Assembly (NCBI GenBank): GCA_017853715.1
Contig: JAFMIZ010000003.1
Coordinates: 20,611-84,610, forward strand
Source of the DNA: Pedosphaera sp.
Lineage (GTDB): Bacteria; Verrucomicrobiota; Verrucomicrobiia; Limisphaerales; DSYF01
Reading direction: 5' to 3'
Length of the DNA: 64,000 nucleotides
The translations under genes were made by a program, and so were the position numbers. Shown here in pieces: positions 17,036 through 59,910 of the stretch. Position 1 is the stretch's first letter, and the number at the start of each line of letters is the position of its first letter. Below the pieces are notes generated by a model. That model saw only the letters and a list, made by a program, of their open reading frames with translations, ran no database searches and was not told the DNA's origin.

Positions 17036-17165
17036 CTCCCACCTGCAGGAGCCGACGTGAGGAGGCTCAAACTTTAAGTATCGCGAAGCGTTTGGACTGC
17101 GGTGTCTTCCAGCACCGCTCTCGACATGCAGCTGGAATGGAGTCTCCTCACGTAGTCTCCTGCGA
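17036..17165. repeat. Composite REP/MITE-like intergenic element
   Basis: Outer inverted arms ggagccgacgtgaggagg (17048-17065) and agtctcctcacgtagtctcc (17141-17160) flank the core gcgaagcgtttggactgcggtgtcttccagcaccgct (17083-17119). That core recurs at 37879-37915. Confidence 0.75.
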
Positions 17166-37855: not shown

Positions 37856-37878
37856 TTGCGGGTGAACGCTACTAAGTC

Positions 37879-37995
37879 GCGAAGCGTCTGGACTGCGGTG
37901 TCTTCCAGCACCGCTTTTGAGTTGTTTTGGATAAGGTGATGTTGAGCATGGGAAAGCGGCGCTCAAGCCGCACGCAGTCCAAACGCTGACACGCG
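37879..37995. repeat. Inverted pair of the GCGAAGCGTYTGGACTGCGGTG...CAGCACCGCT repeat unit (REP/MITE-like) between arsC and arsM
   Basis: The forward unit at 37879-37915 matches 17083-17119 apart from a 1-nt difference. A diverged inverted copy lies at about 37950-37995 (gggaaagcggcgctcaagccgcacgcagtccaaacgctgacacgc). Confidence 0.75.
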
Positions 37996-42955: not shown

Positions 42956-43717
42956 ATGAGATTGAACCCAGCTCATAGCCTCGTCCTCTTTAGTGCGTTG
43001 GCGGTCTTTTCCGCCACGGCTGAGGACACTTTGAACGACACCCGCTCCACCCTCGAAAAATGGGTGGAGACGCGGCAGTTGATTTCCAAGACCCGTGCCG
43101 ACTGGCAGGCGGACAAGGAGTCGCTTGAGCAGACCATCGCGCTCTACGAGCGAGAGCTGAAATCCATCGACGAGCAGATGGCGAAGGTCTCCACCAACAA
43201 CACCCAAGTAGCGAAGGAAATGGCCGAGGCGGAGGCGCTGAAGCGATCGTCGGGCGAGGCCAATGACGCGGCGCGCATCTTCGCGGGAAAGTTGGAGGCG
43301 AAGTTGCAGCAAGTCGCACCCAAGTTGCCCGCGCCATTGCAGGAGATGATCAAGAAAGACCTGGCCCGCATCCCGGCTGATCCGGCGAACAGCAAGATGC
43401 TCCCGGCGGAGCGCATGCAGGTGTGCGTCAACCTTCTCAACGAACTCGATAAGTTCAACAACAGCGTGAATCTCTTCAGTGACAAACGGAAGAACGCCGC
43501 TGGCGAGGAGGTGGCGGTGGAGACGATGTATGTGGGTTTGGGAGCGGCTTACTTTGTGAATGACGCGGGCGACTTTGCCGGTATCGGTGCGTTCGGTCCT
43601 GACGGCTGGACCTGGACAACGAAGCCGGAGATCGCGCCGGCGGTGCGCATGGCGGTGAAAGTCTATCGCAGCGAGCACCCGCCTGCGTTCGTAAAACTAC
43701 CCGCCACCATTCAATGA
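42956..43717 (+). CDS. DUF3450 (TtpB-like) periplasmic coiled-coil protein
   Basis: 253 aa. Signal peptide, long coiled-coil. Position directly upstream of the large MotA/ExbB-family gene, as in Vibrio TonB2-type clusters. Confidence 0.8.
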   Translation: MRLNPAHSLVLFSALAVFSATAEDTLNDTRSTLEKWVETRQLISKTRADWQADKESLEQTIALYERELKSIDEQMAKVSTNNTQVAKEMAEAEALKRSSGEANDAARIFAGKLEAKLQQVAPKLPAPLQEMIKKDLARIPADPANSKMLPAERMQVCVNLLNELDKFNNSVNLFSDKRKNAAGEEVAVETMYVGLGAAYFVNDAGDFAGIGAFGPDGWTWTTKPEIAPAVRMAVKVYRSEHPPAFVKLPATIQ

Positions 43718-45135
43718 AATCTTTCCCCATGAAGCTTGTTCGCAATTGTCTCGTTCTCTTCGCCGCCGCCGTTCCGTTCCTGAGCCCGGCCCAAGGCATG
43801 GATGCCCTGGTCAATGGCGCCGCCACGGACCTGCAAAAGGCCAGCGCTGAGTTGACCGCTGCACGCGCAGAGGTGGAAGCCGCCCGCCTGCCGATCGCCC
43901 GTCGCATCACCGAGCTGGAGCAGCAACTGATCTCCCGCCGGGCCGAACTGGCGAAGGCCCAGCGCTTCCAGGAAAACCAGTTGGTCGAGCTGAACGCTCT
44001 CAAAGCCGAGGCACGCCGCGCCTCGGAGGAAGTGAAGTTCACCGATTCTTTGATCACCGAATACGCCCGCGCATTTCGGTCGCGCTTGAGCTTTGTGGAA
44101 GAGCCGCGTTACGCGGCGATGTTTGACGCGGTGGATCATGCGGGTGCGGCTGCTGATCTGAGCATGGTGGCTCGTTTCACGCAGCGCACGGTTTTGCTCG
44201 AGACGGCGCTGGAACGCATCACCACGGCGCAGGGCGGTGAGTTGCTGGCAGGCAAGGCGATCGACAATCGCGGTCTCGTGCAATCCGGCAAGGTGGCGCT
44301 CATCGGTCCGGTGGCTTTGTTCGCCGCTGACTCCGGTGGCGCTGCCGGCTTATTGCAACAGGAGTTGAACAAGGCGGACCCCACGGTCGCCAAGCTGGAT
44401 GAGTCCCTCGTGGCGGCGAGCCAGCAACTGGCCACCACCGGCCAGGGTGAACTGGTGCTGGACCCGACGCTGGGCAGCGCGTTGAAGATGTCGGCGATGC
44501 ACAAGAGTCTTTACGAACAGCTCAAAGAAGGTGGCGTAGCCATGATTCCGCTGCTGGGCATGGGCATCGCGGCGATTTTGCTGGGCCTCTACAAATGGTG
44601 GCAGTTGAGCCGGGTGCGTGTGGCCACGGACAAGGACTTGCAACAAGTGCTCACCCATTTGACTTCTGGAGAGCAGGAGAAGGCGCTCAAGCACGCACAC
44701 AGCATCACGGGTTTTGCCGGCGACATGCTGGCCACGGCGATCCAGCACGTGGACGAAAAGAAGGAATACATCGAGGAGGTGCTTTACGAAAAGATGCTGG
44801 GCGCACGCACCAAGCTGGAGCGCGGCCTCCCCTTTCTCGCGCTGGCGGCCACGACGGGTCCGTTGCTCGGGCTGCTTGGCACGGTGACGGGCATGATCGC
44901 GACGTTCAAGGCCATCTCCAGTTTTGGCAGTGGCGATCCGAAGATGCTGGCGGCGGGCATTTCCGAGGCGCTGATCTGCACCGCCACCGGCATGGCCGTG
45001 GCCATTCCGTCCCTGCTGTTCCACGCGTTCCTCAGCCGCCGCGCCAAGGGTCTGATCGGTAGCATGGAGCAGACCGCGGTTGGCTTCGTCAATGGCGTGC
45101 CGGAGGGCGAATTCAAATCTCCGTTCGCGCAGTGA
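43714..45135 (+). CDS. Large MotA/TolQ/ExbB proton-channel family protein (TtpC-like)
   Basis: 473 aa. Long periplasmic N-terminal domain, then an ExbB-type channel core (GPLLGLLGTVTGMIATF, ISEALICTATGMAVAIP). ATGA overlap with the upstream gene. Confidence 0.88.
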   Translation: MKSFPMKLVRNCLVLFAAAVPFLSPAQGMDALVNGAATDLQKASAELTAARAEVEAARLPIARRITELEQQLISRRAELAKAQRFQENQLVELNALKAEARRASEEVKFTDSLITEYARAFRSRLSFVEEPRYAAMFDAVDHAGAAADLSMVARFTQRTVLLETALERITTAQGGELLAGKAIDNRGLVQSGKVALIGPVALFAADSGGAAGLLQQELNKADPTVAKLDESLVAASQQLATTGQGELVLDPTLGSALKMSAMHKSLYEQLKEGGVAMIPLLGMGIAAILLGLYKWWQLSRVRVATDKDLQQVLTHLTSGEQEKALKHAHSITGFAGDMLATAIQHVDEKKEYIEEVLYEKMLGARTKLERGLPFLALAATTGPLLGLLGTVTGMIATFKAISSFGSGDPKMLAAGISEALICTATGMAVAIPSLLFHAFLSRRAKGLIGSMEQTAVGFVNGVPEGEFKSPFAQ

Positions 45136-45155
45136 ACTTTAATTCCTGAAATCCC

Positions 45156-45833
45156 ATGAACGATCTGCTTCAACACATGTGGCATGCCTGGGCCGAGGGC
45201 GGCGTGGTGATGGGAGCGATGGCGCTGGTGGCGGTGATCACGTATGCCTGCGCGATCACGTTGCTGAATCACCTGCAGTATCGTGGGCTGACGAAGGCCT
45301 CTGACACCGTTCTGCGTGGCTGGGTCGCGCGTCCCGAGGCCGCGCCGCAGCGCATCCGCGAATTGATCCGCTACACGCAGGATGAACTCCACTCCGTGCG
45401 TGACATCGAGGGGCGTTTCCGTGAGATCGAAGCCACCAAGGTCACGGACGTGGACCGTCGTCTGGCGTTCTTGAACGTGCTCGTCATTTCCGCGCCGTTG
45501 TTCGGATTGCTGGGCACCGTGCTGGGAATGCTGTTGACCTTCAAAGCCATTGGCGTGGGCGGTAGTTCGGGCTCCGAGATCATCGCGCGCGGCATCAGCG
45601 AGGCGCTCGTCTGCACGCAGACCGGCATGATGGTCGCCATCCCCGGACTCGTCATGGCCATGATCGCCAAACGTCGCCGGCACGAGTATGTGGCGTTTCT
45701 GGCGCGGCTGGAGGGGATCACGTTGCGCCATTTCCGTCCCGAGTTCCACGGCATGACGCGTGTCTTCCGTAAGAACAGCGTGCCTGGATTGCAAGCTGGA
45801 GCGTTGGTCGACGCGCGGCCCAACCTGTCATGA
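45156..45833 (+). CDS. exbB: MotA/TolQ/ExbB proton-channel protein
   Basis: 225 aa. APLFGLLGTVLGMLLTF and ISEALVCTQTGMMVAIP. Confidence 0.9.
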   Translation: MNDLLQHMWHAWAEGGVVMGAMALVAVITYACAITLLNHLQYRGLTKASDTVLRGWVARPEAAPQRIRELIRYTQDELHSVRDIEGRFREIEATKVTDVDRRLAFLNVLVISAPLFGLLGTVLGMLLTFKAIGVGGSSGSEIIARGISEALVCTQTGMMVAIPGLVMAMIAKRRRHEYVAFLARLEGITLRHFRPEFHGMTRVFRKNSVPGLQAGALVDARPNLS

Positions 45834-46234
45834 AGCTGCGTCGTTCACTGTCCCAGCCGGAGGAGCCGATCGAGCTGAACCTGATTCCGCTCATCGATAT
45901 CATCATGTTCCTCCTGATCTTCTTCGTCTCCACGACGAGTTTCATGGAGGAGAAGGGCGTCAAAATAGATAAACCGGCCTCGGGCGGTGCGAGCACTTCC
46001 GAGAACACCACCATCGTCTTCATCGTGACGGCGGACGGCAAGATCACTTTCGACGGCAAAGAGGTCGGGTTGCAAGGCGTGCGCCCCACCGTGAAGCGGC
46101 TTTGCTCCAGCGAGCCATTGCCGGTGGTGGTGCAGACGCACGAGAACTCCCGGTCGGGGGTGATGGTCCGCATCCTCGACGAGGCGATGATGGGTGGCGC
46201 AAAAGACGTCAGCGTCGCCGCCAATCGAGGTTGA
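45830..46234 (+). CDS. exbD: ExbD/TolR biopolymer transport protein (copy 1)
   Basis: 134 aa. PIELNLIPLIDIIMFLLIFFV. 4-nt overlap with exbB. Confidence 0.9.
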   Translation: MKLRRSLSQPEEPIELNLIPLIDIIMFLLIFFVSTTSFMEEKGVKIDKPASGGASTSENTTIVFIVTADGKITFDGKEVGLQGVRPTVKRLCSSEPLPVVVQTHENSRSGVMVRILDEAMMGGAKDVSVAANRG

Positions 46235-46261
46235 ACGTGACTGATTGAGACGAGTTGAAAC

Positions 46262-46666
46262 ATGAGATTTCGCCGCACATTAGAAGAGCCGGAAGAGCCG
46301 ATCGAGCTGAACCTGATTCCGCTGATCGACATCATCATGTTCCTGCTCATCTTCTTCGTTTCGACGACGAGCTTCATCGAGGAGCCCGGGGTGGATGTGT
46401 CGAAGCCGAAGTCAGCGAATGCGCGGTTGCTCGACAAGAACAGCATCATTTTTGCCGTGACGCCGGATGGAAAGATCGCCTACGGAGGCAAGGAGGTGGG
46501 TTTGGGTGGAGTTCGTCCGGTGGTCAAGCGGCTGTGCGCCAAGGAGGCGTTGCCGGTGGTGATCCAGGCTGATGACGGGGCCCGCTCAGGCATCGTTATC
46601 CGGGTCATTGATGAAGCGAAGCTCGGGGGAGCGAAAGTGGTGAACATCGCCACGGAAAAGAGTTAG
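46262..46666 (+). CDS. exbD: ExbD/TolR biopolymer transport protein (copy 2)
   Basis: 134 aa. The N-terminal third is nearly identical to copy 1 (PEEPIELNLIPLIDIIMFLLIFFVSTTSF). Confidence 0.9.
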   Translation: MRFRRTLEEPEEPIELNLIPLIDIIMFLLIFFVSTTSFIEEPGVDVSKPKSANARLLDKNSIIFAVTPDGKIAYGGKEVGLGGVRPVVKRLCAKEALPVVIQADDGARSGIVIRVIDEAKLGGAKVVNIATEKS

Positions 46667-46673
46667 CGGGCCC

Positions 46674-47339
46674 ATGCGCAAGGTCTATCAGCAGGAGAGA
46701 AACCCGCTCGGCTTCGCCGTGGCGGTGTCGGCCGCAGTGGCGTTGACAGCGCTGCTGTTTGCCATCATTCCGTTCGCGCACCGACTCAACAAGCCGAGCA
46801 AGACGCTCGAACTGATCAAGACCACCACGATCGAGGCCAAGGAAGAAATCGAAGAGGAAGCACCTCCAGAAGTCGAGCCGGAGAACAAGCCGCCGGAAGC
46901 CGCTGCGGAACCTGAGCTGACTGAGACCGAGCAGGCGATTCCGCTGAGCGCTGATTTGGAAGTGGCCACCGGCACGGGCGGAGCGCTGGCAGGATTTGGT
47001 GCAGACATCAAATCGCTGACCGCCGCAACGGACGTGGCGCAGGATGCCTTTGACGTGAGCGACCTGGAGAAGCGTCCGGAGCCGACCTCGCAAGTGGTGC
47101 CCGCCTACCCGGCGGAACTGCGCAAGGCGAAGGTGGAGGGCGTGGTGACGCTCGTTTTCGTCCTGGATGAGACCGGTCGGGTGGAAGATCCGCGCGTGGA
47201 GAACTCCTCGCGTCCGGAATTTGAAAAGCCCGCGTTGGACGCCATCCGCAAATGGCGCTTCAGCCCTGGCATGAAAGACGGTCAGCCCGTGCGCACCTAC
47301 ATCCGCGTGCCGATGCGATTCCGCGTGGCAACGGGTTAA
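46674..47339 (+). CDS. tonB: Energy transducer TonB
   Basis: 221 aa. N-terminal anchor, Glu/Pro-rich spacer (EEEAPPEVEPENKPPEAAAEPE), and a TonB_C domain (PAYPAELRKAKVEGVVTLVFVLDETGRV...RFSPG). Confidence 0.88.
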   Translation: MRKVYQQERNPLGFAVAVSAAVALTALLFAIIPFAHRLNKPSKTLELIKTTTIEAKEEIEEEAPPEVEPENKPPEAAAEPELTETEQAIPLSADLEVATGTGGALAGFGADIKSLTAATDVAQDAFDVSDLEKRPEPTSQVVPAYPAELRKAKVEGVVTLVFVLDETGRVEDPRVENSSRPEFEKPALDAIRKWRFSPGMKDGQPVRTYIRVPMRFRVATG

Positions 47340-47385
47340 GCGTGTGCGACAGGCAGAATGCCCGTCCCCCTACGGAAAATTTTTT

Positions 47386-48954
47386 ATGAACCGACAATTA
47401 ATGAAAACCCTGGCCTGCGTGGCGATTCTTGCTGTTGGCGCCACCGCGGCGATTGCCGCCGATCCGAAGTTTTCCGATGTCCCCGGCATTGTTGATCCCG
47501 CCAAGAAGGCGGAGGCCACGCCTGAGACCAAGCAGCCGACCGCCCCTGCAAAAGAGAGCGCACCGAAGCCCGTTGCCAAAGCGTCTCCCGCAGCCGCACC
47601 TGTCGTCACTAATTCGCAGCCTGTCGCCGCCAGCACGGTCAACAAAGGCGCCGTCAAGGAGGGTTTGGACGCGCTGTGGAGCGATGCTGACTTCAAGAAG
47701 CGTTTGATCGGCAGCTACGGATTCGCCTCGGACGTTGAGCCGCGTTTGAATCCGGAAGAGCTGGCGACTTACCGCGACAAGGTGGTTCCGCTTTTGCGCG
47801 ACGACCCCAAGAAGGCGATGAGCGAACTCAAGTCGCTTGCCAAACCGGGTGCGAGCGCGGTGTTCGATTTCACGCTGGGCAACCTGTATTTCCAGCAGGA
47901 AGACCTGACGAACGCGGTGAAGTGTTTCGAGGCGGCCATCGCCAAGTATCCGGACTATCGCCGCGCCCACAAGAACCTTGGGTTCGCGCTCGTGCGTGAC
48001 GGCAAGCTCGCCGCCGCGATCAAGCCTTTGACGCAGACCATCGAACTTGGCGGCTCCGATGGCAAAGTGTTCGGCCTGCTCGGTTACACTTACGCGACGC
48101 TCGGTCGCAACGTCTCCGCCGAGGCAGCGTATCGGCAGGCGTTGGTGTTCGAGCCGGAGAATCTCGAATTCAAGCTCGGCCTCGTGAAGAGCGCGATTGC
48201 CACGGCGAACTACGACTACGCACTGGCGCTGCTGGATGAACTCATCAAGGAATATCCCGAGCGTGACACGTTGTGGACGTTGCAGGCGAATCTCTTCATC
48301 CAGAAAGATCAGCCCGCCAAGGCGGTCATCAGTCTCGAAATGTTGCGCCGTGCCGGCAAGGCCAGTCCCCAGACGCTTTATCTGTTGGGCGATCTTTACA
48401 TGTCCCAGGAGTCGCGCGATCTGGCGCTCGAGGCCTATCTGGCGGCGCTCGATCAGGATGGTGGTGCAAATCCCACGAAGGCCTTGCGGGCGGCGCAGAT
48501 TCTGGTCAGCCGGGGCGCTTGGACTGAGGCGGAACAGTTGTTCGCCAAAATTCACGCCGCCTCCACGCAGTTGGAAGAAAAAGATGAACTCAAGTTGTTG
48601 AAGCTCGAATCCAAGGTGGCGATGTCCACCGGCGCGGGCGAAAAGGCGATTGTGACGCTGGAACAGATTGTGCAGAAAGATCCGCTCGATGGCGAAGCGT
48701 TGCTCCTCACGGGCGACTACTATTCCAAGAATGGCCAGAAGGAGAAGGCTGAGCTGCGCTACGAAGCGGCGGCGGCGATTCAGGGATTCGAGGCGGATGC
48801 CTTCGTGAAGCACGCCCAACTGCTCGTGCAATCGCAGAAATACGTTCAGGCCACCGACCTCTTGAAGAAGGCTCAGAAAGTCAAACCGCGCGACAACGTG
48901 CAACGCTACTTGGATAAGGTGGAGCAGCTCGCCCGTAACAGCGGACGCTCGTAA
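47386..48954 (+). CDS. Periplasmic TPR-repeat protein (TtpD-like position)
   Basis: Start at ATG 47386 (MNRQLMKTLACVAILAVGATAAIA). Multiple TPR-like repeats. Follows tonB as in TonB2-type clusters. Confidence 0.82.
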   Translation: MNRQLMKTLACVAILAVGATAAIAADPKFSDVPGIVDPAKKAEATPETKQPTAPAKESAPKPVAKASPAAAPVVTNSQPVAASTVNKGAVKEGLDALWSDADFKKRLIGSYGFASDVEPRLNPEELATYRDKVVPLLRDDPKKAMSELKSLAKPGASAVFDFTLGNLYFQQEDLTNAVKCFEAAIAKYPDYRRAHKNLGFALVRDGKLAAAIKPLTQTIELGGSDGKVFGLLGYTYATLGRNVSAEAAYRQALVFEPENLEFKLGLVKSAIATANYDYALALLDELIKEYPERDTLWTLQANLFIQKDQPAKAVISLEMLRRAGKASPQTLYLLGDLYMSQESRDLALEAYLAALDQDGGANPTKALRAAQILVSRGAWTEAEQLFAKIHAASTQLEEKDELKLLKLESKVAMSTGAGEKAIVTLEQIVQKDPLDGEALLLTGDYYSKNGQKEKAELRYEAAAAIQGFEADAFVKHAQLLVQSQKYVQATDLLKKAQKVKPRDNVQRYLDKVEQLARNSGRS

Positions 48955-48972: not shown

Positions 48973-51798
48973 ATGGAATTTATCTCCATTCCCGCACGTG
49001 TATCGCGATGGCTCGTCGCGACTGGCTGCCTGCTGTCGTGCCTGCTCGTGCCTGCGGCCCAGGCGCAGGACAACGGTGCCGTGGCGGGTGTGGTGATCAG
49101 CACGTGGGACGGCACGCCTTTGTCCGGCGCAACCATCACCGTGCGCGGGACCACACTGGCAGCGCAGACCGGCGCGAATGGCCAGTTCGAATTGAAGAAC
49201 GTTCCGCCGGGCGATCAAGTGTTGCGCTTCTCCAAGTCCGGTTTTGCTGCGGCCACGGTGACGGATGTGCGGGTGTTGCCTGGTCAAACCACGACGGTGA
49301 ACGGCAACCTGCGCCCCGAATTCTACGAGATGGAGGAATACGAGGTGACGGCGGAGGAGTTTCAGGAGCAGACGGAGGCGATCATTTTTGAACGGCAACA
49401 ATCTGCCGGCATGCTTGACGGCATCGGCTCGGAGCAGTTCGCCAAGCTCGGTGCGGGTGACGCAGCGGAGGCATTGGGCAAAGTTGCCGGGGCCAGCATT
49501 TCCGATGGCAAGTTCGCGGTCATCCGTGGCTTGGCAGATCGTTACACCACCACCACGCTCAACGGCAACGAGCTGCCCAGCGCTGATCCGGATCGTAAGG
49601 CGGCGCAACTGGACCTTTTACCGGCGCAGTTCATCGAGCGCATGGACGTCAGCAAAACCTTCAGTCCGGACATGGCCGGTGGATTCGCGGGAGGTTCCAT
49701 TGATATCATCACGAAGAGTTACCCGAAGGACGGCATGTTCAGCTTCAGTGTTGGAACTTCCTACAATACGCAGGCCAGCTTGAACGACGAGTTCCCGATG
49801 ACGGATCGTGGCGGCACCGACTGGTTGGCGATGGACGACGGCACGCGCGAATTGCCCGCCGTGGCAGTCGCGTCATCACCAGCGGGCTCGGGTGGTCCGG
49901 TGCAGAATGAAACAGCCGTGCAGAACAGTTTCAATTCCACGCAACTCTCGCCGATTGCAGACAAGTCGCCCTTGAACTCCAGCCTGTCGCTCGCGTTCGG
50001 GGACAGCAAACAGATGGGCGACGTCAAGGTGGGTTTCATCGGCTCGCTGTCCTACAAGAATGATTACACCTATTACGACAAGGTGACCGTGCGCGAGTAT
50101 GAGGGCCCGCAGAATGTGGTGAAGGACAAGGTCGGCAAGGTCGGAAAGATCGAGTATAACTGGGGCGCTTCTGGTGGTCTGACGCTCGGTCTGGGCGAGC
50201 ACCACGAAGTGAAGTTCAATTACCTCAACGTTCAGGCGGCCGAAGATGAGGCGGCGCGTTTTCAGGGGCAGGATTTGAACGTGGGCACCGAGCCCGGCGA
50301 GACTTACCTCGACCAGTCGGTGCTGCATTGGACCGAGCGCAATCTATCGTATTACCAGCTCGTGGGCTCGCATGACTTGCCTGACTTGAATGACCTGAAA
50401 TTCGACTGGGCGAGTGCTTACTCGATCGCAACTCAGGAGGAGCCGGACTATCGCATCTTTCAATTCGTCGCCAACACCAACAACTCGGTGTATCTGCCCC
50501 AAGCGGCGACGGATCCTGCGTTTCCTACCCGTTATTGGCGAGATTTGGAGGAGAACAATATCAATCTACGTGGCGACTTCACCGTGCCACTGCCGTCCTA
50601 TAATTCGGGTGACAATGCCTTCAAGACGGGGGTGGCCTTGAGCGATTCCTCGCGCGAGTTTTTCCAGCGTGGTTGGGAAATGCGCTACACCAGTCTGGGG
50701 CATCCCTTCATCCGGAATGGCGATCCACAAAGCTATCTGGACCCGACCAATGCGGCGTTCATCGAATATCGGAATTTTCCCGCGAACATCACCTATGACG
50801 GCGCGCAAACCATCGAAGCGGTCTATGCGATGGGTGATTGGTCGGCGCTCGAATGGCTGCGAGTGGTCGGTGGTGCGCGTCTGGAGAAGACGGACCTCTC
50901 CATCGAGGGCGTGAATCAAACCTTGAACGATCGTCCGCTGCCGTCTGGGGAGATCAAGCGCGACGACTGGCTGCCCTCCTTGAGCGGAACGATCTCTTTG
51001 CGTGAGAATCTGCAATTACGCGCGGCATGGTCCCAAACCGTGGTGCGCCCCGCCTATCGCGAGATTGCGCCCGTGATCATCTACGACATCGCCCAAGGCC
51101 GCACCATCAGTGGCAATCCGGACCTGACCTTCGCCGAGAGCGCCAATTACGACCTGCGGCTCGAATGGTTTCCTCGCGCGGGCGAATTGGTGTCCGCGTC
51201 CTTGTTCTACAAGCAGGTGGACAGCCCCATTGAACTCTCGGCTGAAGACTTCTCCGGCGACTCGCTGACTTATCGCAACTTCGACAAGGCCGATGTCATG
51301 GGGGTGGAGGCGGAATATCGCTCGCGCCTTGACCGCTTCTGGGAGCCGCTTAGTCCCTTCACGCTCGGATTCAACGCCGCCTACATTTACTCCGAGGTTC
51401 CACTCACGCCGGACCAAATTACCATCCGGCAGGGAGCCTTTGGCAGCACGGACACTACGCGTCCGCTCTACGAACAGCCTGAATACGTGGCCAATGCCGA
51501 CCTAACTTGGGAGCTTGAAGCCACGCGCACGTCCATCACTCTTTCCGGCGGCATCGTGGGTCCGCGACTCGTGGTGGTGGGGTTGGCCCAGCCCGACGAA
51601 TACGAGCAGCCCGCGCCGCAGCTGGATTTGTTCATCAGTCAGAAGCTCGGCAAGCATTGGAAGCTGAAGTTCTCCGCCAAGAACCTCCTCGACCCTGAAT
51701 ACGAGACTATCCAGACCTATCCCAATGGTGATGAAGTCACCATCGAAAGTTACAAGAGGGGGATGACCTTCGGGCTCTCGCTGGGTTGCGAGTTTTGA
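48973..51798 (+). CDS. TonB-dependent receptor with an N-terminal carboxypeptidase-regulatory-like domain
   Basis: 941 aa. Signal peptide, CarboxypepD_reg-like segment (GVVISTWDGTPLSGATITVRGT...NGQFELKNVPPG), plug (FAVIRGLADRYTTTTLNGNELPS), and a barrel ending in GLSLGCEF. Confidence 0.9.
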   Translation: MEFISIPARVSRWLVATGCLLSCLLVPAAQAQDNGAVAGVVISTWDGTPLSGATITVRGTTLAAQTGANGQFELKNVPPGDQVLRFSKSGFAAATVTDVRVLPGQTTTVNGNLRPEFYEMEEYEVTAEEFQEQTEAIIFERQQSAGMLDGIGSEQFAKLGAGDAAEALGKVAGASISDGKFAVIRGLADRYTTTTLNGNELPSADPDRKAAQLDLLPAQFIERMDVSKTFSPDMAGGFAGGSIDIITKSYPKDGMFSFSVGTSYNTQASLNDEFPMTDRGGTDWLAMDDGTRELPAVAVASSPAGSGGPVQNETAVQNSFNSTQLSPIADKSPLNSSLSLAFGDSKQMGDVKVGFIGSLSYKNDYTYYDKVTVREYEGPQNVVKDKVGKVGKIEYNWGASGGLTLGLGEHHEVKFNYLNVQAAEDEAARFQGQDLNVGTEPGETYLDQSVLHWTERNLSYYQLVGSHDLPDLNDLKFDWASAYSIATQEEPDYRIFQFVANTNNSVYLPQAATDPAFPTRYWRDLEENNINLRGDFTVPLPSYNSGDNAFKTGVALSDSSREFFQRGWEMRYTSLGHPFIRNGDPQSYLDPTNAAFIEYRNFPANITYDGAQTIEAVYAMGDWSALEWLRVVGGARLEKTDLSIEGVNQTLNDRPLPSGEIKRDDWLPSLSGTISLRENLQLRAAWSQTVVRPAYREIAPVIIYDIAQGRTISGNPDLTFAESANYDLRLEWFPRAGELVSASLFYKQVDSPIELSAEDFSGDSLTYRNFDKADVMGVEAEYRSRLDRFWEPLSPFTLGFNAAYIYSEVPLTPDQITIRQGAFGSTDTTRPLYEQPEYVANADLTWELEATRTSITLSGGIVGPRLVVVGLAQPDEYEQPAPQLDLFISQKLGKHWKLKFSAKNLLDPEYETIQTYPNGDEVTIESYKRGMTFGLSLGCEF

Positions 51799-52110
51799 GT
51801 TTGCAGCCTCAGCCAAACGCGCTGGATGGCGTCTCTTATCCCAAGAGCAGACGATTGCCGTTGCTGGGAGTTCCGGCTCTAGCCGTAACTATGCGGCCAC
51901 GCGGCGACGCCCCGTCGCAGCTATTTAGCAGAAAGCCAACTGTATCGTTACAGCTGTCGCCGGTTCCTTAAGCCACACCCCGCCTTCGCCGGACCGGCTA
52001 AAGCCGGGACTCCAAGCAATAGTTCATGGTGCAGGAGAGCCACACGCGACCGCCAGCTTCCCGATGGCCCTAATCACTCCGTCGCCTGTTTGCTTTGTGC
52101 CCTTCGTTCC

Positions 52111-52132
52111 CTGTTTCCGAATCGTAACCCCG
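52111..52132 (+). promoter_or_regulatory. Pho-box-like motif CTGTTTCCGAA TCGTAACCCCG
   Basis: 111 bp upstream of ATG 52243. The 19-nt core (52110-52128) is identical to 42893-42911. Confidence 0.4.
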
Positions 52133-52242
52133 CCGACTTCGTTCCTTCACATCAGCCCTCCATTGTTCCAACGGATTTCCTGATCCGTCCCAGCGGGCCA
52201 GGTTCCTCAATCCCTAAACAGACAAAGCAACTCAACAAGCAA

Positions 52243-55197
52243 ATGAAGAAACTTAAGAACCTCCTCGGCTCACTCGCCATCGCGGGCCTCCTCGGCTCGA
52301 CGACGGCTCAGGGTGCCTTGGTGATCGTCACTAACGACATCGCCGCTGGCACCACCAATACGTGGGTATCCACAAACGAATACCTGCTGAACACGATGGT
52401 GTATGTGCAAAGCAACGCGGTATTGAACATTGAACCCGGCACGGTGGTGAAAGGCGGGACGAACGCGGCGAACCTGATTGCGCGTAATGGGTTGCAGAAC
52501 CTAGTGGCGGGCTTGTGGGTGACACGAGGCGGCAAGCTGTATGCGACGGGCACGGTGAGCGCGCCGATCATCTTCACGATGGAAGGTGACGACGTGAACA
52601 ACCCGAGCGATGTGCCGCCGACCACGACGGGCAAGTGGGGTGGGATCGTGATGATGGGCCGTGCGAGCATCAACAGCGCGCAGTTTGCGGCGGGTCAGGC
52701 GGCGAGTCCGAAGTATGACGTGTATGAAGGCGTGGCGACGGTGCCGTCGCCGCAGACCGAACACATCTTTGGCGGTAATGATGACAGCGACAGCAGCGGT
52801 GCGTTGCGGTATGTGAGCATCCGGCACACGGGCAACACGTTTGCGCCGGGCAAGGAGCTGAACGGGTTGACGATGGGCGGAGTGGGCAGCGGGACGGACA
52901 TCTCGTATGTGGAAGTGCTGGCCAGCTCGGACGACGGGTTCGAGTGGTGGGGCGGCACGGTGAGCACGCACCATCTGATCGGCGCGTTCAACGAAGACGA
53001 CGACTTCGACACGGATCAGGGCTATCGCGGGACGAATCAGTTTTGGTTTGCGATCAAGCCGCCGTGGGCTGGGAGCAGCGACAGCCGCGCGATGGAGACG
53101 GACGGTGACCTGAACCAGACGGTGCTGGGCGATGCGACACCGTTCAGCCAGTGGACGGTTTACAACGCGACGTTGATTGGCCGCGGCAAGGGCGACATCC
53201 TGGACCTGGGTGGTAATCAGGGCTGGAACGCGCGTGATGAGGCGGCGCCGAACGTCTTCAACTCGGTGTTTGCGGAGTTCAACAACGGGTTGTTGCTGGA
53301 CGGGGATGGGCTGTATCACTGGACGAACACGACGGTGCGGGCGAGCACGAAGAACTGTGTGTGGGACAATGTGAATGCGGGGAATGCGAATGGCTTGTCG
53401 TTCATCACTAATGCGGCCAACAACCACTTCGTCGGGGCAGCTCTCCTCGGCGGTATCAGCTATACCAATACGTCAAAGCTCAACCCTCGTCCGCTTTCGA
53501 CCAGCCCGGCCTTAACGCAGCCTGCGTTGGCGGGCGCCCCGGTGACGGCTCCTTATCGTGGAGCATTCTCTGGCATCAACGACGACTGGGCGGACGACTG
53601 GAGCGCAGTTTCAACTGAGGGTTATTTGGCGGCGTCGGGCAGCAAACCCACGATCGTCATCACCAATGACATTGCCGCAGGCACGACCAACACCTGGTCC
53701 GGCAGCGCTGAATATCTGCTCAACACGATGGTGTATGTGCAAAGCAACGCGGTATTGAACATTGAACCCGGCACGGTGGTGAAAGGCGGGACGAACGCGG
53801 CGAACCTGATTGCGCGTAATGGGTTGCAGAACCTAGTGGCGGGCTTGTGGGTGACACGAGGCGGCAAGCTGTATGCGACGGGCACGGTGAGCGCGCCGAT
53901 CATCTTCACGATGGAAGGTGACGACGTGAACAACCCGAGCGATGTGCCGCCGACCACGACGGGCAAGTGGGGTGGGATCGTGATGATGGGCCGTGCGAGC
54001 ATCAACAGCGCGCAGTTTGCGGCGGGTCAGGCGGCGAGTCCGAAGTATGACGTGTATGAAGGCGTGGCGACGGTGCCGTCGCCGCAGACCGAACACATCT
54101 TTGGCGGTAATGATGACAGCGACAGCAGCGGTGCGTTGCGGTATGTGAGCATCCGGCACACGGGCAACACGTTTGCGCCGGGCAAGGAGCTGAACGGGTT
54201 GACGATGGGCGGAGTGGGCAGCGGGACGGACATCTCGTATGTGGAAGTGCTGGCCAGCTCGGACGACGGGTTCGAGTGGTGGGGCGGCACGGTGAGCACG
54301 CACCATCTGATCGGCGCGTTCAACGAAGACGACGACTTCGACACGGATCAGGGCTATCGCGGGACGAATCAGTTTTGGTTTGCGATCAAGCCGCCGTGGG
54401 CTGGGAGCAGCGACAGCCGCGCGATGGAGACGGACGGTGACCTGAACCAGACGGTGCTGGGCGATGCGACACCGTTCAGCCAGTGGACGGTTTACAACGC
54501 GACGTTGATTGGCCGCGGCAAGGGCGACATCCTGGACCTGGGTGGTAATCAGGGCTGGAACGCGCGTGATGAGGCGGCGCCGAACGTCTTCAACTCGGTG
54601 TTTGCGGAGTTCAACAACGGGTTGTTGCTGGACGGGGATGGGCTGTATCACTGGACGAACACGACGGTGCGGGCGAGCACGAAGAACTGTGTGTGGGACA
54701 ATGTGAATGCGGGGAATGCGAATGGCTTGTCGTTCATCACTAATGCGGCCAACAACCACTTCGTCGGGGCAGCGTTGCTGACCAGCATCAGTTACACGAA
54801 CACGATGGCGCTGGATCCGCGCCCGCAGGCGGGCAGTCCGGCGTTGACGGATGCGCTACCGGGCGCGCCGGTGGCCACCACCTACCGTGGTGCCTTCGGC
54901 CCTAACGACAATTGGGCGAGTGGCTGGACTGCACTTGCCACCGAAGGCTTTCTCAGCACGAACACCGTGATAGTGCCCCCGACGGCTCCGACCATCACCT
55001 CGGTGGCGGGCAGTGGCACGTTGTCGTTCTCGGTGAGTTCACAGAACGGTTACAGCTACATCCTACAAGCCACGCCGGTGTTGAGTCCCCCGGCTTGGAC
55101 CAACAAGGAAACTCTGCCGGGTAACGGTGGGACGTTGAACTTCGCGCCGGTCGTCACGACCAATGCGATGGAATACTTCCGTATCCTCGCCCAGTGA
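52243..55197 (+). CDS. Large secreted protein with two tandem ~444-aa units (beta-helix-like, unknown function) and a C-terminal beta-sandwich tail
   Basis: Start at ATG 52243 (MKKLKNLLGSLAIAGLLGSTTAQG). Each unit begins IVTNDIAAGTTNTW...YLLNTMVYVQSNAVLNIEPGTVVKGG and contains SSDDGFEWWGGTV and DDDFDTDQGYRG. The tail ends EYFRILAQ. Confidence 0.85.
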   Translation: MKKLKNLLGSLAIAGLLGSTTAQGALVIVTNDIAAGTTNTWVSTNEYLLNTMVYVQSNAVLNIEPGTVVKGGTNAANLIARNGLQNLVAGLWVTRGGKLYATGTVSAPIIFTMEGDDVNNPSDVPPTTTGKWGGIVMMGRASINSAQFAAGQAASPKYDVYEGVATVPSPQTEHIFGGNDDSDSSGALRYVSIRHTGNTFAPGKELNGLTMGGVGSGTDISYVEVLASSDDGFEWWGGTVSTHHLIGAFNEDDDFDTDQGYRGTNQFWFAIKPPWAGSSDSRAMETDGDLNQTVLGDATPFSQWTVYNATLIGRGKGDILDLGGNQGWNARDEAAPNVFNSVFAEFNNGLLLDGDGLYHWTNTTVRASTKNCVWDNVNAGNANGLSFITNAANNHFVGAALLGGISYTNTSKLNPRPLSTSPALTQPALAGAPVTAPYRGAFSGINDDWADDWSAVSTEGYLAASGSKPTIVITNDIAAGTTNTWSGSAEYLLNTMVYVQSNAVLNIEPGTVVKGGTNAANLIARNGLQNLVAGLWVTRGGKLYATGTVSAPIIFTMEGDDVNNPSDVPPTTTGKWGGIVMMGRASINSAQFAAGQAASPKYDVYEGVATVPSPQTEHIFGGNDDSDSSGALRYVSIRHTGNTFAPGKELNGLTMGGVGSGTDISYVEVLASSDDGFEWWGGTVSTHHLIGAFNEDDDFDTDQGYRGTNQFWFAIKPPWAGSSDSRAMETDGDLNQTVLGDATPFSQWTVYNATLIGRGKGDILDLGGNQGWNARDEAAPNVFNSVFAEFNNGLLLDGDGLYHWTNTTVRASTKNCVWDNVNAGNANGLSFITNAANNHFVGAALLTSISYTNTMALDPRPQAGSPALTDALPGAPVATTYRGAFGPNDNWASGWTALATEGFLSTNTVIVPPTAPTITSVAGSGTLSFSVSSQNGYSYILQATPVLSPPAWTNKETLPGNGGTLNFAPVVTTNAMEYFRILAQ
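52390..53441 (+). repeat. Copy 1 of the 1,052-bp identical core of the 1,332-bp tandem duplication
   Basis: Matches 53722-54773 at an offset of exactly 1,332 bp. Derived ORFs in both strands are identical in the track (52501-53427 = 53833-54759; 52695-53012 = 54027-54344; 53177-53374 = 54509-54706). Confidence 0.9.
53722..54773 (+). repeat. Copy 2 of the 1,052-bp identical core of the 1,332-bp tandem duplication
   Basis: See copy 1. Flanks of the units (52321-52389 versus 53650-53721, and 53442-53640 versus 54774-54960) are clearly diverged. Confidence 0.9.
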
Positions 55198-55280: not shown

Positions 55281-56072
55281 TCAATGCTCTGCGAGGTGTT
55301 TGGTCAGCCGAACAATTTCTTCCAAAGCCGCCCGCTGATTCAACTTCAACTCCCGGCGCAAGACCTGTTTGAGTCTCGTGACTTCACGGCTGCGACCACA
55401 TGACTTCAATTGCTGGAGAATCGCTTCAGTATCTTGGATCGCACCCAGGGATTCTTGGGTTGATACCAGCACTCTGACCATTCGGTCGCGGGCAACCGGT
55501 CGGGCAGTGGCTGCCAGCTCTCGCAGATATCGCCAGCGCCGGATGTCCCGGCGCAATTCGTGAAGGTCGGTCAGGGACAGTGGGTCCGCGCGCTGGATCG
55601 TTTCCAGGCACCGCGCTGAAGCGGCGCTGGTCCATTGATGAAAGCGGCGGTTCAGTTTTTCAGCATCTCCCCGCTTGATGAGCTTGAGTTTGATTGCCCG
55701 TAGTTTTGATTTCATTTGCTTCAACACCTTCTCCGAGCGGCGGCATTGTTTGGCGCGTTCGCGCAGCAACCGAGTCAACAGGGCAGGGGAGGCGTGCATG
55801 TGCTTCGCCCATTCCAGCGCTACATCGGCATCGCGTGGTGGTGCGAAGGTGTCCATCACTTTGCGGGCGGTGAGGCGGAAGCTCCTGATGCGCTCGCGGG
55901 CCTGCCGCTGGTTACTGAGTTGCAGCAGCAACCGGGTGCGGCGTAATGAAACCCGGAGATCATGCACCGCCGCGCTATTGAGTGGACCGCGTCTTCGCAG
56001 CAGGTGGCTGATGCGGGTCAGGTTCGCATCGAGCGCGCGCTGCCACTGTTTGCGGAGCTGCTTCGGGGACAT
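55281..56072 (-). CDS. Stand-alone CHAD domain protein (polyphosphate-granule associated family)
   Basis: 263 aa, all-helical, with His/Arg-rich CHAD signatures (VHDLRVSLRRTRLLLQL, LHELRRDIRRWRYL). Confidence 0.8.
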   Translation of the reverse strand: MSPKQLRKQWQRALDANLTRISHLLRRRGPLNSAAVHDLRVSLRRTRLLLQLSNQRQARERIRSFRLTARKVMDTFAPPRDADVALEWAKHMHASPALLTRLLRERAKQCRRSEKVLKQMKSKLRAIKLKLIKRGDAEKLNRRFHQWTSAASARCLETIQRADPLSLTDLHELRRDIRRWRYLRELAATARPVARDRMVRVLVSTQESLGAIQDTEAILQQLKSCGRSREVTRLKQVLRRELKLNQRAALEEIVRLTKHLAEH

Positions 56073-56393: not shown

Positions 56394-56711
56394 ATGCGAT
56401 TCAACTACCGCCCTTCATGTCAGTTGTCGCCCGGGTTTGAACGCCTGAGCCCTTCATGTTCAATCAACCGGATCGACTTTGATGTTCCGCAGCCTTCCCG
56501 GGCCGAGCAATTGCTCGCGCGGCTGCTGGCCCGGGCTTTTGGGGCTTTTCCAGAATCCCATTTCAAGCGCCCCTTGGTGCGCGCCGCCAAGGAAGCCGCC
56601 CGCATGACTCAGGACACGGGTTACGCTGTCCCGTTGCTGCCCGAGTTGTTTGCCGAACTGGCCCTGCGGGAAATGCTTCGCGCTGAGTACCTGCGCATGG
56701 GCCGGATTTGA
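56394..56711 (+). CDS. Hypothetical protein (105 aa)
   Basis: ATG at 56394, preceded by AAGGAG at 56381-56386 (7-nt spacing). No recognisable motif. Lies 25 nt upstream of the acyltransferase gene. Confidence 0.5.
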   Translation: MRFNYRPSCQLSPGFERLSPSCSINRIDFDVPQPSRAEQLLARLLARAFGAFPESHFKRPLVRAAKEAARMTQDTGYAVPLLPELFAELALREMLRAEYLRMGRI

Positions 56712-56736
56712 AACACGTGACTTCATACGCACACCA

Positions 56737-57513
56737 ATGATCGTCGAATCCGTCAGCGCACCCACCATCAAAGCTTCACGACTAGCCTCAACCACCGAGG
56801 CTTACACCGTTCGCCTCGCATCTTCACTCGTGGAGATTCGAGCCACGCAAGCGCTGCGGTTCAACGTCTTCAATCTCGAACTCAATGAGGGCCTGGCCGA
56901 GTCCTACGTCACGGGTCTCGACGTGGATGCCTTTGACACGGTTTGCGATCACCTGCTGGTCGAGCACGTGGCGACGGGTTGTATTGTGGGAACCTATCGC
57001 CTGCAGACGGGCCCCATGGCGGCGGCGAATCTCGGTTACTACAGCGCACAGGAATTTGATTTCGCCCCGTTCGAGCCGCTGCGAAACGAAGTCGTTGAAC
57101 TGGGCCGCGCCTGCGTGGATCGGTTGCATCGCAATCTCATCGTGCTGGGGTTGCTGTGGAAGGGCATCGCGCAATATGCCAACGCGCGGGGCTGCCGATA
57201 CTTGATTGGGTGCAGTTCATTGCCCTCGGTGGATCCGAAGGCGGGTGCGCGTGTTTATTCTGATCTGTGCCGGCGGCATCTGGTGGAGCCATCGCTTCGC
57301 ACCAATCCACTGCCGCACTGCGAGTGTTCATTGCGTGAACTTGACGAGGACGCTCCCGAAGTGCCCAAGCTGCTGCGCGCCTACCTCGGCATGGGCGCGA
57401 AGATTTGCGGCGTGCCTGCGATAGACCGTCAGTTTGGCACCATTGATTTCCTGACGTTGTTGGACCTCGAGGCGCTGCCCGCCTTGGCGCGAGCCCGGTT
57501 TCTTGGGGTCTAG
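56737..57513 (+). CDS. GNAT-fold N-acyl amino acid synthase / OlsB-like acyltransferase (Acetyltransf_5 type)
   Basis: Start at ATG 56737. RATQALRFNVFNLEL, GTYRLQTG, VELGRACVDRLHRN and YLGMGAKICGVPAIDRQFGTIDFLTLLD match the hemolysin-like/OlsB family as I recall it. Confidence 0.8.
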   Translation: MIVESVSAPTIKASRLASTTEAYTVRLASSLVEIRATQALRFNVFNLELNEGLAESYVTGLDVDAFDTVCDHLLVEHVATGCIVGTYRLQTGPMAAANLGYYSAQEFDFAPFEPLRNEVVELGRACVDRLHRNLIVLGLLWKGIAQYANARGCRYLIGCSSLPSVDPKAGARVYSDLCRRHLVEPSLRTNPLPHCECSLRELDEDAPEVPKLLRAYLGMGAKICGVPAIDRQFGTIDFLTLLDLEALPALARARFLGV

Positions 57514-58100: not shown

Positions 58101-59315
58101 TCACTCGGCCCGGCCTACCGGCTTCGGCAGGCCGCGATACACCAACAGAAATAAGACACTGATGACTGCCACGAGCGCTGACAATGCACCCCAAAAGACC
58201 GGCCAACGGGTGATGCTACCGGTAGTGCACATTGCAAACCACCATCCCGTCCCCAAATACCCCAGCAGGTTGCCCACCCCGCCGTTCACGACGGACATCA
58301 ATGCTTGCGCGCGTGCCCGCCATTCCTTGTCTACTCGCTGGTCCAGATAGATCTGGGCTGTGATGAACACGAAGGTGAATGAAAACCCGTGCAACGCCAC
58401 ACCCGCCAGCAACCAGCTCCTGGTGTCCAGCGCGCTCAGAGCAAATCGGATGATGCCGAAACCAAGTCCCAGACAAAAAATCCACTTCAAGCGCCAGCGC
58501 AACAGCAGTCCGCCCAAGGTGAACATGGCGATGATTTCGGTCACTTGGCCCAAGCTCAGCCATGCGCTGGTGTGTTGTAGACCCAGCTCGCGCAGGTGCG
58601 CCGGCGCATAGGGGTAGAACGACGCGAGTGGAATGCAATACAACGCAACCGTGATGAAAACCATTCGATGATCTCGATCCTTGAGCAGCGTCAAGGCATC
58701 CAGTCCCAGCCGTTCATGCCACTTCAGGGCGACGTCGGACTTGGGCGGGTCGTCATCTGGCAGTATGAAAGTGTAAGCGACCAATAACAACCAGAGCGCC
58801 GTGCCGGTGTAGCCCGCGAGAGTGTTGGCGTCCGCGTCCAACAAGCTGACCAACCAGCACCCCGCCATCCAGCCGAGGGTTGCCAGGGCGCGCACCGGGC
58901 CGAACTGACTGCGCGAATCCGCCAGCCGCGAGAAGACAATGGTTGAAGTAATGCTCCAGCTCGGCGCCGCGCAGAGCGCGAATAATTGTATCAATCCCAG
59001 CACCACCCCCGCCGGCCAGTGCTGGCCAATGGCGGTGGTGGCCAGGGCCATGGCGCAGGCGGATGCGAGCGCCAGAAACCGCATGACTTTCACGGGCGAC
59101 GCGTGCCGGTCGGCCATCGCGCCAAAAAACAGCGGCGAAATGAACGCCGCCACGGCTGACGCGGCGAAGGCAAAAGGCTTGATGCCATGATACCCGTGCG
59201 CATCCAGCACCGGGCTTAACGGCACGAACCAAATGCCCAACGCCGCTCCTTGGATGAAAAACAATCCCAGCAGCTCGAGGTATTCCAGTTTGCGGATGGC
59301 CCGTAGCACCGGCAT
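58101..59315 (-). CDS. MFS transporter, nucleoside:H+ symporter-like (NupG/YegT family)
   Basis: Start at ATG 59315 (MPVLRAIRKLEYLELLGLFFIQGAALGIWFVPLSPVL). 12 predicted TM helices. ISPLFFGAMADRH resembles the YegT/NupG motif. Confidence 0.8.
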   Translation of the reverse strand: MPVLRAIRKLEYLELLGLFFIQGAALGIWFVPLSPVLDAHGYHGIKPFAFAASAVAAFISPLFFGAMADRHASPVKVMRFLALASACAMALATTAIGQHWPAGVVLGLIQLFALCAAPSWSITSTIVFSRLADSRSQFGPVRALATLGWMAGCWLVSLLDADANTLAGYTGTALWLLLVAYTFILPDDDPPKSDVALKWHERLGLDALTLLKDRDHRMVFITVALYCIPLASFYPYAPAHLRELGLQHTSAWLSLGQVTEIIAMFTLGGLLLRWRLKWIFCLGLGFGIIRFALSALDTRSWLLAGVALHGFSFTFVFITAQIYLDQRVDKEWRARAQALMSVVNGGVGNLLGYLGTGWWFAMCTTGSITRWPVFWGALSALVAVISVLFLLVYRGLPKPVGRAE

Positions 59316-59400
59316 AGGACACACGGGGGCGCACCAAAGCACAAGTCCTCGCTGCGCAGCCCAGACTTGCTGGCTTTCGTTTGAACATGCTGCTCCAGCC

Positions 59401-59910
59401 ATGTCCGAGTTGCAAATGATTCAAATTCTGCCCGCGCTGAAGCGGATTTGCCCGACCTCGACGCCCTGGCGAGGGTCATTTGGCACGCGCATTGCCCGGA
59501 AATCATTTCGCGAGAGCAGATCGAGTTCATGTTGAGCCGGATGTATTCGTTGCCGACCCTGCGGGATGACCCGTACGTGCGAAATATCTGCTTCGTTCGC
59601 CTGCTGGTCGGCGGCCGGATGGGTGGTTTTGCTGCTTACGGTCCCACGGACGGGCCTGCAACCTTCCTGTTGCATAAACTCCATCTGCTCCCGGAATTGC
59701 ACGGGCGCGTGCTGGCGTGCCTTTTGCCTGGGCACTGTGAAGCGGACGCAATGGAATTGGGTGCGCGTCAACTCAAGCTGCGCGTAAACAAACAGAATCT
59801 ACAGGCCATCACGTTCTAACAACGCCACGGCTACCGTTCTTTAGAATCTGTGCGCATTGCCATCGGCGGCGGTTTCGTGATGGATGACTTCGTGATGCTC
59901 AAAACGCTGG
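59401..59910 (+). pseudogene. GNAT N-acetyltransferase gene disrupted by a 1-nt frameshift and an in-frame TAA
   Basis: ATG 59401 gives MSELQMIQILPA, then the family sequence continues in another frame (AEADLPDLDALARVIWHAHCPEIISREQIEFML...). TAA at 59817-59819 falls where GNATs have FY (NLQAITF*QRHGY), and the frame continues as RIAIGGGFVMDDFVMLKTL. The 3' limit is uncertain. Confidence 0.6.

Follow-up and report, generated by a model that had tools for sequence, protein, structure and literature searches.

How can two halves of one gene be identical to the last base over most of their length and yet differ strongly at their edges? The question is raised by a gene of Pedosphaera sp. (Verrucomicrobiota), located on the plus strand of a 64,000-nucleotide stretch of contig JAFMIZ010000003.1 (assembly GCA_017853715.1) that is referred to here as the window. 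The gene codes for a predicted secreted protein composed mainly of two homologous units in tandem, unit A and unit B. From the letters of this stretch, a sequence-only reading had proposed that the units go back to an old duplication whose centre has been erased to identity by recombination. The parts of the gene, with positions counted along the window, are the following.

52243-55197, plus strand: gene of the secreted two-unit protein, from its open reading frame (ORF) and translation (ATG at 52243; 984 aa)
52243-52314, plus strand: predicted Sec signal peptide MKKLKNLLGSLAIAGLLGSTTAQG, read from the sequence, with an inferred cleavage site and without a lipobox Cys
52325-53621, plus strand: unit A in its full homologous extent, about 432 aa (gapped DNA self-alignment; phmmer domain at residues 28-460)
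52390-53441, plus strand: core A, identical to core B (350 codons, 0 differences)
53442-53721, plus strand: unique, diverged, in-frame junction of 280 bp, comprising the right flank of unit A, a short linker (53622-53656) and the left flank of unit B
53657-54947, plus strand: unit B in its full homologous extent (gapped DNA self-alignment; phmmer)
53722-54773, plus strand: core B, identical to core A (offset comparison, blastn)
54958-55194, plus strand: C-terminal tail of about 79 aa, a predicted beta-sandwich (AlphaFold2 strands at residues 918-983; segment identities)

Self-alignment of the gene gave one uninterrupted run in which 52390-53441 equals 53722-54773, that is 1,052 bp with 0 mismatches, both when the bases were compared one by one at an offset of 1,332 and with blastn. 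The offset corresponds to 444 codons and is in frame, the units being tandem homologues inside a single gene. An exact repeat of this length cannot have arisen by chance in 64 kb. The window sequence does not contain any N, and neither a third copy of the core nor any other long repeat was detected by blastn within its 64 kb. Identity was 58-70% in the 50-bp bins adjoining the core and fell to background beyond them in the comparison at offset 1,332. When units A and B were aligned with gaps, 48 of 62 aligned bases were identical in the left flank, with one indel, and 114 of 174 in the right flank, with two 3-bp indels; all three of these small indels were multiples of three, and the homologous flanks were overall around 63-77% identical. 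The right-hand boundary of the core was sharp, 100% identity being followed by a segment with 47 of 78 bases identical, which suggests the end-point of a single recent event. Two pairs of antisense ORFs were also found in duplicate (52501-53427 with 53833-54759, and 52695-53012 with 54027-54344), as a consequence of the location of the repeat in DNA rich in guanine plus cytosine (GC; 61% for the gene). The in-frame tandem duplication at offset 1,332 with a perfectly identical core of 1,052 bp, as claimed in the sequence-only reading, was thus exact to the base. The flank peptides that it quoted as diverged, at both DNA and protein level, matched ours, the ORFs that it described as duplicated on both strands were recovered, and the scattered core mismatches that it considered as evidence to the contrary amounted to 0.

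The contrast between flanks and core was even clearer at the codon level. Among 76 alignable flank codons, 28 differed between units A and B by synonymous changes only and 22 by non-synonymous ones, whereas the 350 core codons displayed 0 differences of any kind. Since heavy synonymous divergence in the flanks abuts around 1 kb without any change, the units appear old and their centre recently copied, and the same synonymous contrast rules out selection on the protein, or relaxed constraint, as the cause. On the basis of these codons it can be held as secure that the duplication is old, and much older than the identity of the core. The core itself was very probably copied recently from one unit onto the other, by gene conversion or by an equivalent unequal exchange; either unit may have been the donor. 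No sign of GC-biased conversion was observed, with GC contents of 61.5% in the core and 60% in the linker.

Among two-unit relatives, P0004 and P0005 (homologous proteins are denoted by P and fetched loci by L) are the closest to the window protein; they come from two independent metagenome assemblies (L073 and L074). Each of them possesses its own exact DNA core, of 1,029 and 902 bp, respectively, at an offset of 1,320. A codon alignment of the four units revealed 126 core nucleotide sites at which the two units of each species agree with one another but not with those of the other species, corresponding at the codon level to 82 synonymous and 25 non-synonymous changes, and no positionally shared sites inside the homogenised tract. 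In contrast, 40 sites in the flanks were shared by position (unit 1 with unit 1 and unit 2 with unit 2) and essentially none by species. Since core sites are concerted and flank sites positional, the duplication is older than the split of these two lineages and the cores were homogenised separately afterwards. The edges of the tracts nearly coincided in gene coordinates, extending from 124 or 208 to 1194 or 1109 in P0004/P0005 and from 148 to 1199 in the window gene. Shared synonymous substitutions of this kind were obtained for P0004/P0005; for the window gene, the evidence consists only of the internal contrast between flanks and core. The codon contrast, together with the site patterns in P0004/P0005, supported the proposal that recombinational homogenisation had erased the centre of an old duplication.

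A search of the protein database yielded 796 homologues at E <= 1e-3, and units were delineated in the best 120 of them. Units within each multi-unit protein were 61-99% identical, whereas the cores of different two-unit proteins presented a median identity of 50%. In all 69 complete two-unit homologues the core was more alike than the flanks within the protein (median 0.92 vs. 0.66), and in 11 of these 69 the cores were at least 99.5% identical at the protein level. Between species, the core was no better conserved than the flanks (0.50 vs. 0.47). Unit positions 289-360 were among the most variable between species (0.29-0.38), yet 0.88-0.95 identical within proteins; conversely, positions 409-432 were conserved between species (0.53) and only 0.58 identical within proteins. 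This disagreement between the within-protein and between-species profiles indicated homogenisation and not constraint. Core quartets favoured the paralogue topology, in which units group by protein, in all 2,181 protein pairs with cores less than 65% identical.

Among 13 closely related pairs compared at the protein level, most showed a concerted core with positional flanks. Thus, P0056/P0074 presented 24 concerted sites and 1 positional site in the core, as opposed to 0 concerted and 8 positional sites in the C-terminal flank, and the same split occurred in P0037/P0041. The positional signal faded across the family once cores were less than about 65% identical. The possibility that flanks are positionally orthologous family-wide was consequently rejected, this being the case only among close relatives; at greater depth flanks too grouped by protein, which indicates that homogenisation, or loss and re-duplication of units, eventually reaches them. 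At the DNA level, the identity of tandem units in other genomes ranged from 73 to 100%, with 1,208 bp at 100% in L011, 98.6% in L001, 98.2% in L004, and 98.0% in L044, the latter on a 1.66-Mb contig. A spread of this kind fits episodic conversion followed by decay. These comparisons show that the family has evolved in concert, to judge from its sequences, with the same edge effect throughout.

The number of units also varied. According to phmmer domains, 20 of 121 proteins had one unit, 72 had two, this being the commonest form, and 29 had three. The nearest genomes carrying the same operon (described below), L003, L007, and L010, were found among GTDB species representatives, a search covering one genome per species; they possess one unit, their operon proteins being 55-89% identical. 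Two units were present in P0004, P0005, and P0006-P0009, and three in P0001 and P0003. The count of units in related genomes that the sequence-only reading had recommended therefore returned one, two or three, varying between lineages. Repeated changes of unit number have thus occurred among lineages that are fairly close, in agreement with the recombinational instability expected in the sequence-only reading, and this fits gain and loss by recombination. The following marks of intragenic concerted evolution were found: tandem in-frame units, a higher likeness within genes than between genomes, and a copy number varying between lineages.

A mechanism can be proposed for these phenomena. A right-handed beta-helix module of about 432 aa (1.3 kb) would have been duplicated in tandem and in frame long ago. 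Homologous recombination between these direct repeats, 1.3 kb apart, could then take place within one chromosome or between sister chromosomes, and the central 1,052 bp of one unit would be overwritten by the other through non-reciprocal gene conversion or through a double or unequal exchange. A conversion tract needs homologous sequence at either end. On the outside, the units border on the signal peptide and the tail, which are not homologous, and on the inside they border on the linker with its indels; unit edges would thus be converted rarely or never, would keep diverging and would in turn block the extension of heteroduplex. The sharp boundaries at 52390 and 53441 could be explained by edges that diverge and become barriers. 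Resolution without crossover would result in conversion, and resolution with crossover in the loss or gain of a whole unit, which may account for relatives with one, two or three units. If the gene had simply collapsed to one unit and been duplicated anew, its new linker would be identical to the outer flanks. Because the flanks at the linker differ from the outer flanks, the last homogenising event was probably a conversion or double exchange confined to the core. We infer that the process is of RecA type, that the event was recent and that the units predate the conversion instead of having been rebuilt.

Recent copying of the centre of an old pair of units has to be weighed against what an assembly could produce by itself, an alternative already named in the sequence-only reading. 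Three forms can be distinguished: false expansion of one unit into two, collapse of near-identical cores to a consensus, and under-calling of more than two units. The exact repeat of 1,052 bp is longer than the inserts of short-read libraries, and a graph assembler, after a single passage through a loop, would output the shared node twice and thereby make the copies identical by construction. A de Bruijn loop traversed once, bubble popping and multi-mapped polishing are all candidate routes for a collapse, and a true identity of about 98% is a common state, the assemblies of L001, L004, L005, L006, and L044 standing at 96.5-98.6% and not at 100%. These five assemblies, however, retained 17-39 mismatches between copies, so that differences are kept where they are present, and a collapse of cores with about 98% identity would still leave the contrast with flanks at 63-77%. 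As for false expansion, the cores are bridged by a unique 280-bp sequence (53442-53721) that keeps the reading frame and leads from the close of core A into the opening of core B; since a junction of this kind requires at least two units, expansion of a one-unit gene is very unlikely. Its linker is, in addition, homologous to those of two-unit homologues, and the two-unit architecture recurs in independent assemblies, including the long contig of L044. The artefact alternative thus lost most of its weight as regards false expansion and kept some likelihood as regards partial collapse or under-called units. Taken as a whole we consider it unlikely, and a collapse of cores that are really 98-99% identical, or a reduced three-unit array, leaves the main conclusion unchanged. 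Several observations nevertheless weigh against recent copying or limit its reach. The identity and the two-copy count stand as assembled, graph collapse or polishing may contribute to them, and a third unit would escape notice if its linker were identical. The pairs P0100/P0102 and P0081/P0105 showed almost no core conversion, so that homogenisation is not universal. When the window flanks were compared with flanks of other proteins, positional likeness exceeded cross likeness in 34 comparisons and the reverse occurred in 31, and the protein database, the GTDB species-representative genomes and the metagenome contigs yielded no relative above about 72% identity; the old age given to the window's duplication is therefore relative to the identity of its core and not to any speciation.

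The remaining alternatives dispense with an old pair of units or with copying between them. According to one, the whole unit was duplicated recently and the flanks then diverged fast, owing to positive selection or to a relaxation of constraint, with no change in the core. Flanks are module boundaries plus linker, regions that often evolve fast, and those of the window gene resemble each other (66-73% at the amino acid level) slightly more than they resemble flanks of other proteins. Their differences are, however, largely synonymous (28 of 76 codons with synonymous changes only, vs. 0 of 350 in the core), mutation alone cannot spare around 1 kb beside a divergence of about 30%, and interspecies conservation is as high in the flanks as in the core (0.47 vs. 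0.50). The positional orthology of flanks beside concerted cores in P0004/P0005 points in the same direction. The synonymous contrast in effect refutes this recent duplication, to which we give hardly any credit. A mosaic origin is scarcely better placed and seems to us very improbable: the gene would have collapsed to one unit and been re-duplicated recently, with diverged flanks and linker imported afterwards from other strains. Unit number does change in the family, and the gene is mosaic in another respect, tail and core having different histories with regard to P0008 and P0004 (see below). Nevertheless, at least two separate imports placed exactly at unit edges would be needed, and a donor-like flank was not found, the best flank matches (0.68-0.74) being no better than core matches. 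The pattern of diverged edges around a more alike or identical core, moreover, was present in 69 of 69 proteins and is explained by one mechanism that P0004/P0005 exhibit in vertical descent. Conversion between old units thus accounted better for the data than either of these scenarios.

That tandem repeats within a gene evolve in concert through gene conversion or unequal crossing-over is a classical model, so that the process itself is textbook; the locus is a new and unusually clear example of it, in an uncharacterised family partnered with a transporter. Repeats identical at the DNA level that allow changes of copy number have been described in bacterial surface proteins such as Rib/alpha C, Esp, SasG/Aap, and the SHIRT-domain "Periscope Proteins" (PMC8201768). 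As in these, the units of the window gene are tandem, in frame, identical in DNA and more alike within the gene than between orthologues; unit number varies among relatives, array edges are diverged and homologous recombination is the presumed driver. In contrast to the stalks of surface proteins, which contain many immunoglobulin-like domains of 80-130 aa, there are one to three very large units (a beta-helix of around 432 aa, 1.3 kb). The host also differs, being an environmental Gram-negative member of the Verrucomicrobia, the length variation was seen between lineages, and the protein, which is not a known adhesin, is linked with a TonB-dependent transporter. Membership among the Periscope Proteins (PMC8201768) was considered and rejected, given that two beta-helix units of 432 aa form most of the protein and no long array of small domains projects a distal domain.

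As a natural case of bacterial gene conversion with an edge effect, the locus is very clean, and many lineages of the family repeat the pattern independently. At a locus of this type, short-read assemblies may give a wrong number of copies or a wrong identity between them, and trees inferred from the core will be misleading. The regularity of the pattern across the family and the conserved partnership with a transporter add value beyond the known mechanism.

With respect to the protein itself, the homologues listed, with up to 72% identity (E = 0), were annotated as PF28492 Beta_helix_4, and by this homology we infer that the window protein belongs to the same family. No match was obtained in Pfam and NCBIfam scans of the whole protein, of one unit and of the tail, the Pfam release scanned being older than the PF28492 model. 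An AlphaFold2 model of the full length, built from an alignment of 54 two-unit proteins, reached a mean predicted local distance difference test score (pLDDT) of 90.3. In it, a short helical region comes after each of two beta-helix domains, and residues 918-983 form a beta-sandwich at the C-terminus. The predicted template modelling score of 0.63 left the relative orientation of the domains uncertain, and an N-terminal helix at residues 2-17 had low pLDDT. A model of a single unit (pLDDT 80.9) displayed regular short beta-strands. According to these models, each unit is predicted to adopt a right-handed parallel beta-helix.

All the neighbours found with Foldseek in the Protein Data Bank (PDB) were right-handed beta-helix proteins and all the matches were weak (best E of 5.9e-5 for the full length, with template modelling scores, TM, of 0.14-0.17, and of 9e-3 for one unit, with TM around 0.3). 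They included an alginate lyase of polysaccharide lyase (PL) family PL6, Pel9A of PL9, chondroitinase B, alginate epimerases, GH28 and GH55 proteins, and phage tailspikes. The predicted fold is thus shared with Pel9A (1ru4), the PL6 alginate lyase (7dmk), chondroitinase B (1ofm), and tailspikes. Sequence searches of the PDB with a single unit and with a profile returned no meaningful match. Membership of PL6 or PL9 was not supported, in view of the weak Foldseek matches and the lack of a PDB sequence match, and a specific enzyme family is not assignable because the structural matches are generic and weak. A dozen acidic residues, such as D230, D231, E234, D252, D256, D258, and E285, were invariant across the two-unit alignment, with motifs including DDGFEWWGG and EDDDFDTDQGY, which suggests a metal-dependent binding or catalytic site.

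The C-terminal tail of the window protein was 77% identical to that of P0008, whose core was only 62% identical, whereas the closest core was that of P0004 (79%), yet the P0004 tail was unrelated (25% identical). Since these identities disagree, the tail and the beta-helix units have different histories. Some homologues carry the sorting domain PF18962 of the type IX secretion system, including two that are named as proteins of Bacteroidota and Zhuqueibacterota, and its presence points to export to the cell surface.

The genes upstream of the beta-helix gene form a co-linear series on the same strand, as follows.

42097-42951, plus strand: AraC-type regulator (Pfam)
42956-43717, plus strand: DUF3450 protein (Pfam)
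43714-45135, plus strand: large MotA/ExbB-family protein, TtpC-like, 473 aa (Pfam)
45156-45833, plus strand: ExbB (Pfam)
45830-46234, plus strand: first ExbD (Pfam)
46262-46666, plus strand: second ExbD (Pfam)
46674-47339, plus strand: TonB (Pfam)
47344-48954, plus strand: tetratricopeptide repeat (TPR) protein (Pfam)
48973-51798, plus strand: TonB-dependent transporter with CarboxypepD_reg, Plug and barrel, directly upstream of the beta-helix gene (Pfam, NCBIfam)

As judged with Pfam from the genes alone, 42956-48954 comprises a co-linear set of TonB2 type, DUF3450-MotA/ExbB-ExbB-ExbD-TonB-TPR. The TonB2 system of Vibrio consists of TtpB/DUF3450, TtpC, ExbB2, ExbD2, TonB2, and TtpD/TPR (PMC6957404); the window operon contains the same protein families and is then adjoined by the TonB-dependent transporter, the difference being that it has two ExbD genes. 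The transporter bears a likeness to the carbohydrate-type subfamily TonB-Xanth-Caul, although its score of 254.9 bits lies below the family cut-off of 310 bits. The whole gene order was kept in the Verrucomicrobia relatives L003, L007, L010, L012, L015, L017, L019, L021, and L044. The window lineage is Verrucomicrobiota; the best operon match was a genome labelled "subdivision 3", and others were Limisphaerales or Verrucomicrobiae. Of the 44 loci fetched, 24 had a homologue of the transporter gene immediately upstream of the beta-helix gene, and a further 13 had one at a distance of no more than a few kb; the labels of these loci are Verrucomicrobiota, Chitinivibrionales/Chitinispirillaceae, Bacteroidota, Gemmatimonadota, Leptospira, and Chlorobiales. 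In the loci L036-L038, L040, and L042 of Leptospira, the transporter match lay downstream and not upstream. Judged by this gene order, the transporter is a conserved partner of the beta-helix gene in several phyla.

Fold and context together would indicate a secreted and probably surface-exposed protein for carbohydrate binding or processing, which would capture or process its ligand, probably a polysaccharide, for the adjacent TonB-dependent transporter. A loose functional analogy exists with HxuA, a beta-helical protein that works with the receptor HxuC (PMC4873976): in both cases a secreted beta-helix protein is encoded beside a transporter. The window protein shows no sequence relationship to HxuA, however, and does not belong to a two-partner secretion pair. 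The Beta_helix_4 family is a candidate for a widespread, undescribed accessory of transporter-mediated uptake, possibly of polysaccharides. It is conceivable, if rather doubtful, that near-identity and a copy number of one to three are maintained because this surface partner of the transporters, conserved across phyla, works best with identical modules, for example to capture a repetitive polymer in a multivalent manner. If true, this would make the protein an environmental Gram-negative counterpart of the variable-length surface proteins, and the trait would be a defining one of a new family of transporter accessories.

Other observations were made around the operon. The transporter and beta-helix genes are separated by an ORF-free gap of 444 bp at 51799-52242. 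An Rfam search of the whole window including this gap gave no match, and a scan for promoters and terminators gave no convincing promoter. At the corresponding position L044 carries a gene of 294 aa with no recorded Pfam match. Downstream of the beta-helix gene the neighbours are the following.

55281-56072, minus strand: CHAD-domain protein (Pfam/NCBIfam)
56650-57513, plus strand: OlsB-like ornithine-lipid N-acyltransferase (Pfam/NCBIfam)
58101-59402, minus strand: nucleoside:H+ symporter (Pfam/NCBIfam)

These neighbours were not kept at the corresponding position in relatives, L044 having other genes there. The two ExbD genes displayed 67% DNA identity overall and 91% over 98 bp (45855-45952 vs. 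46287-46384), a stretch that encodes the conserved EEPIELNLIPLIDIIMFLLIFFVSTTSF and could reflect either strong constraint or conversion of a short tract between the two adjacent paralogues. Elsewhere in the window, the 39-bp sequence TCGCGAAGCGTTTGGACTGCGGTGTCTTCCAGCACCGCT occurred twice, at 17081-17119 and 37877-37915; the two copies, 20.8 kb apart, have one mismatch and possibly represent a short dispersed repeat. Finally, the Gemmatimonadales loci L025, L030, L033, and L041 contained another tandem pair of segments of around 0.8-0.9 kb, 77-80% identical, about 5-7 kb upstream of the beta-helix gene and located at approximately 3.1-5.3 kb within each locus (0.6-2.6 kb in L033).

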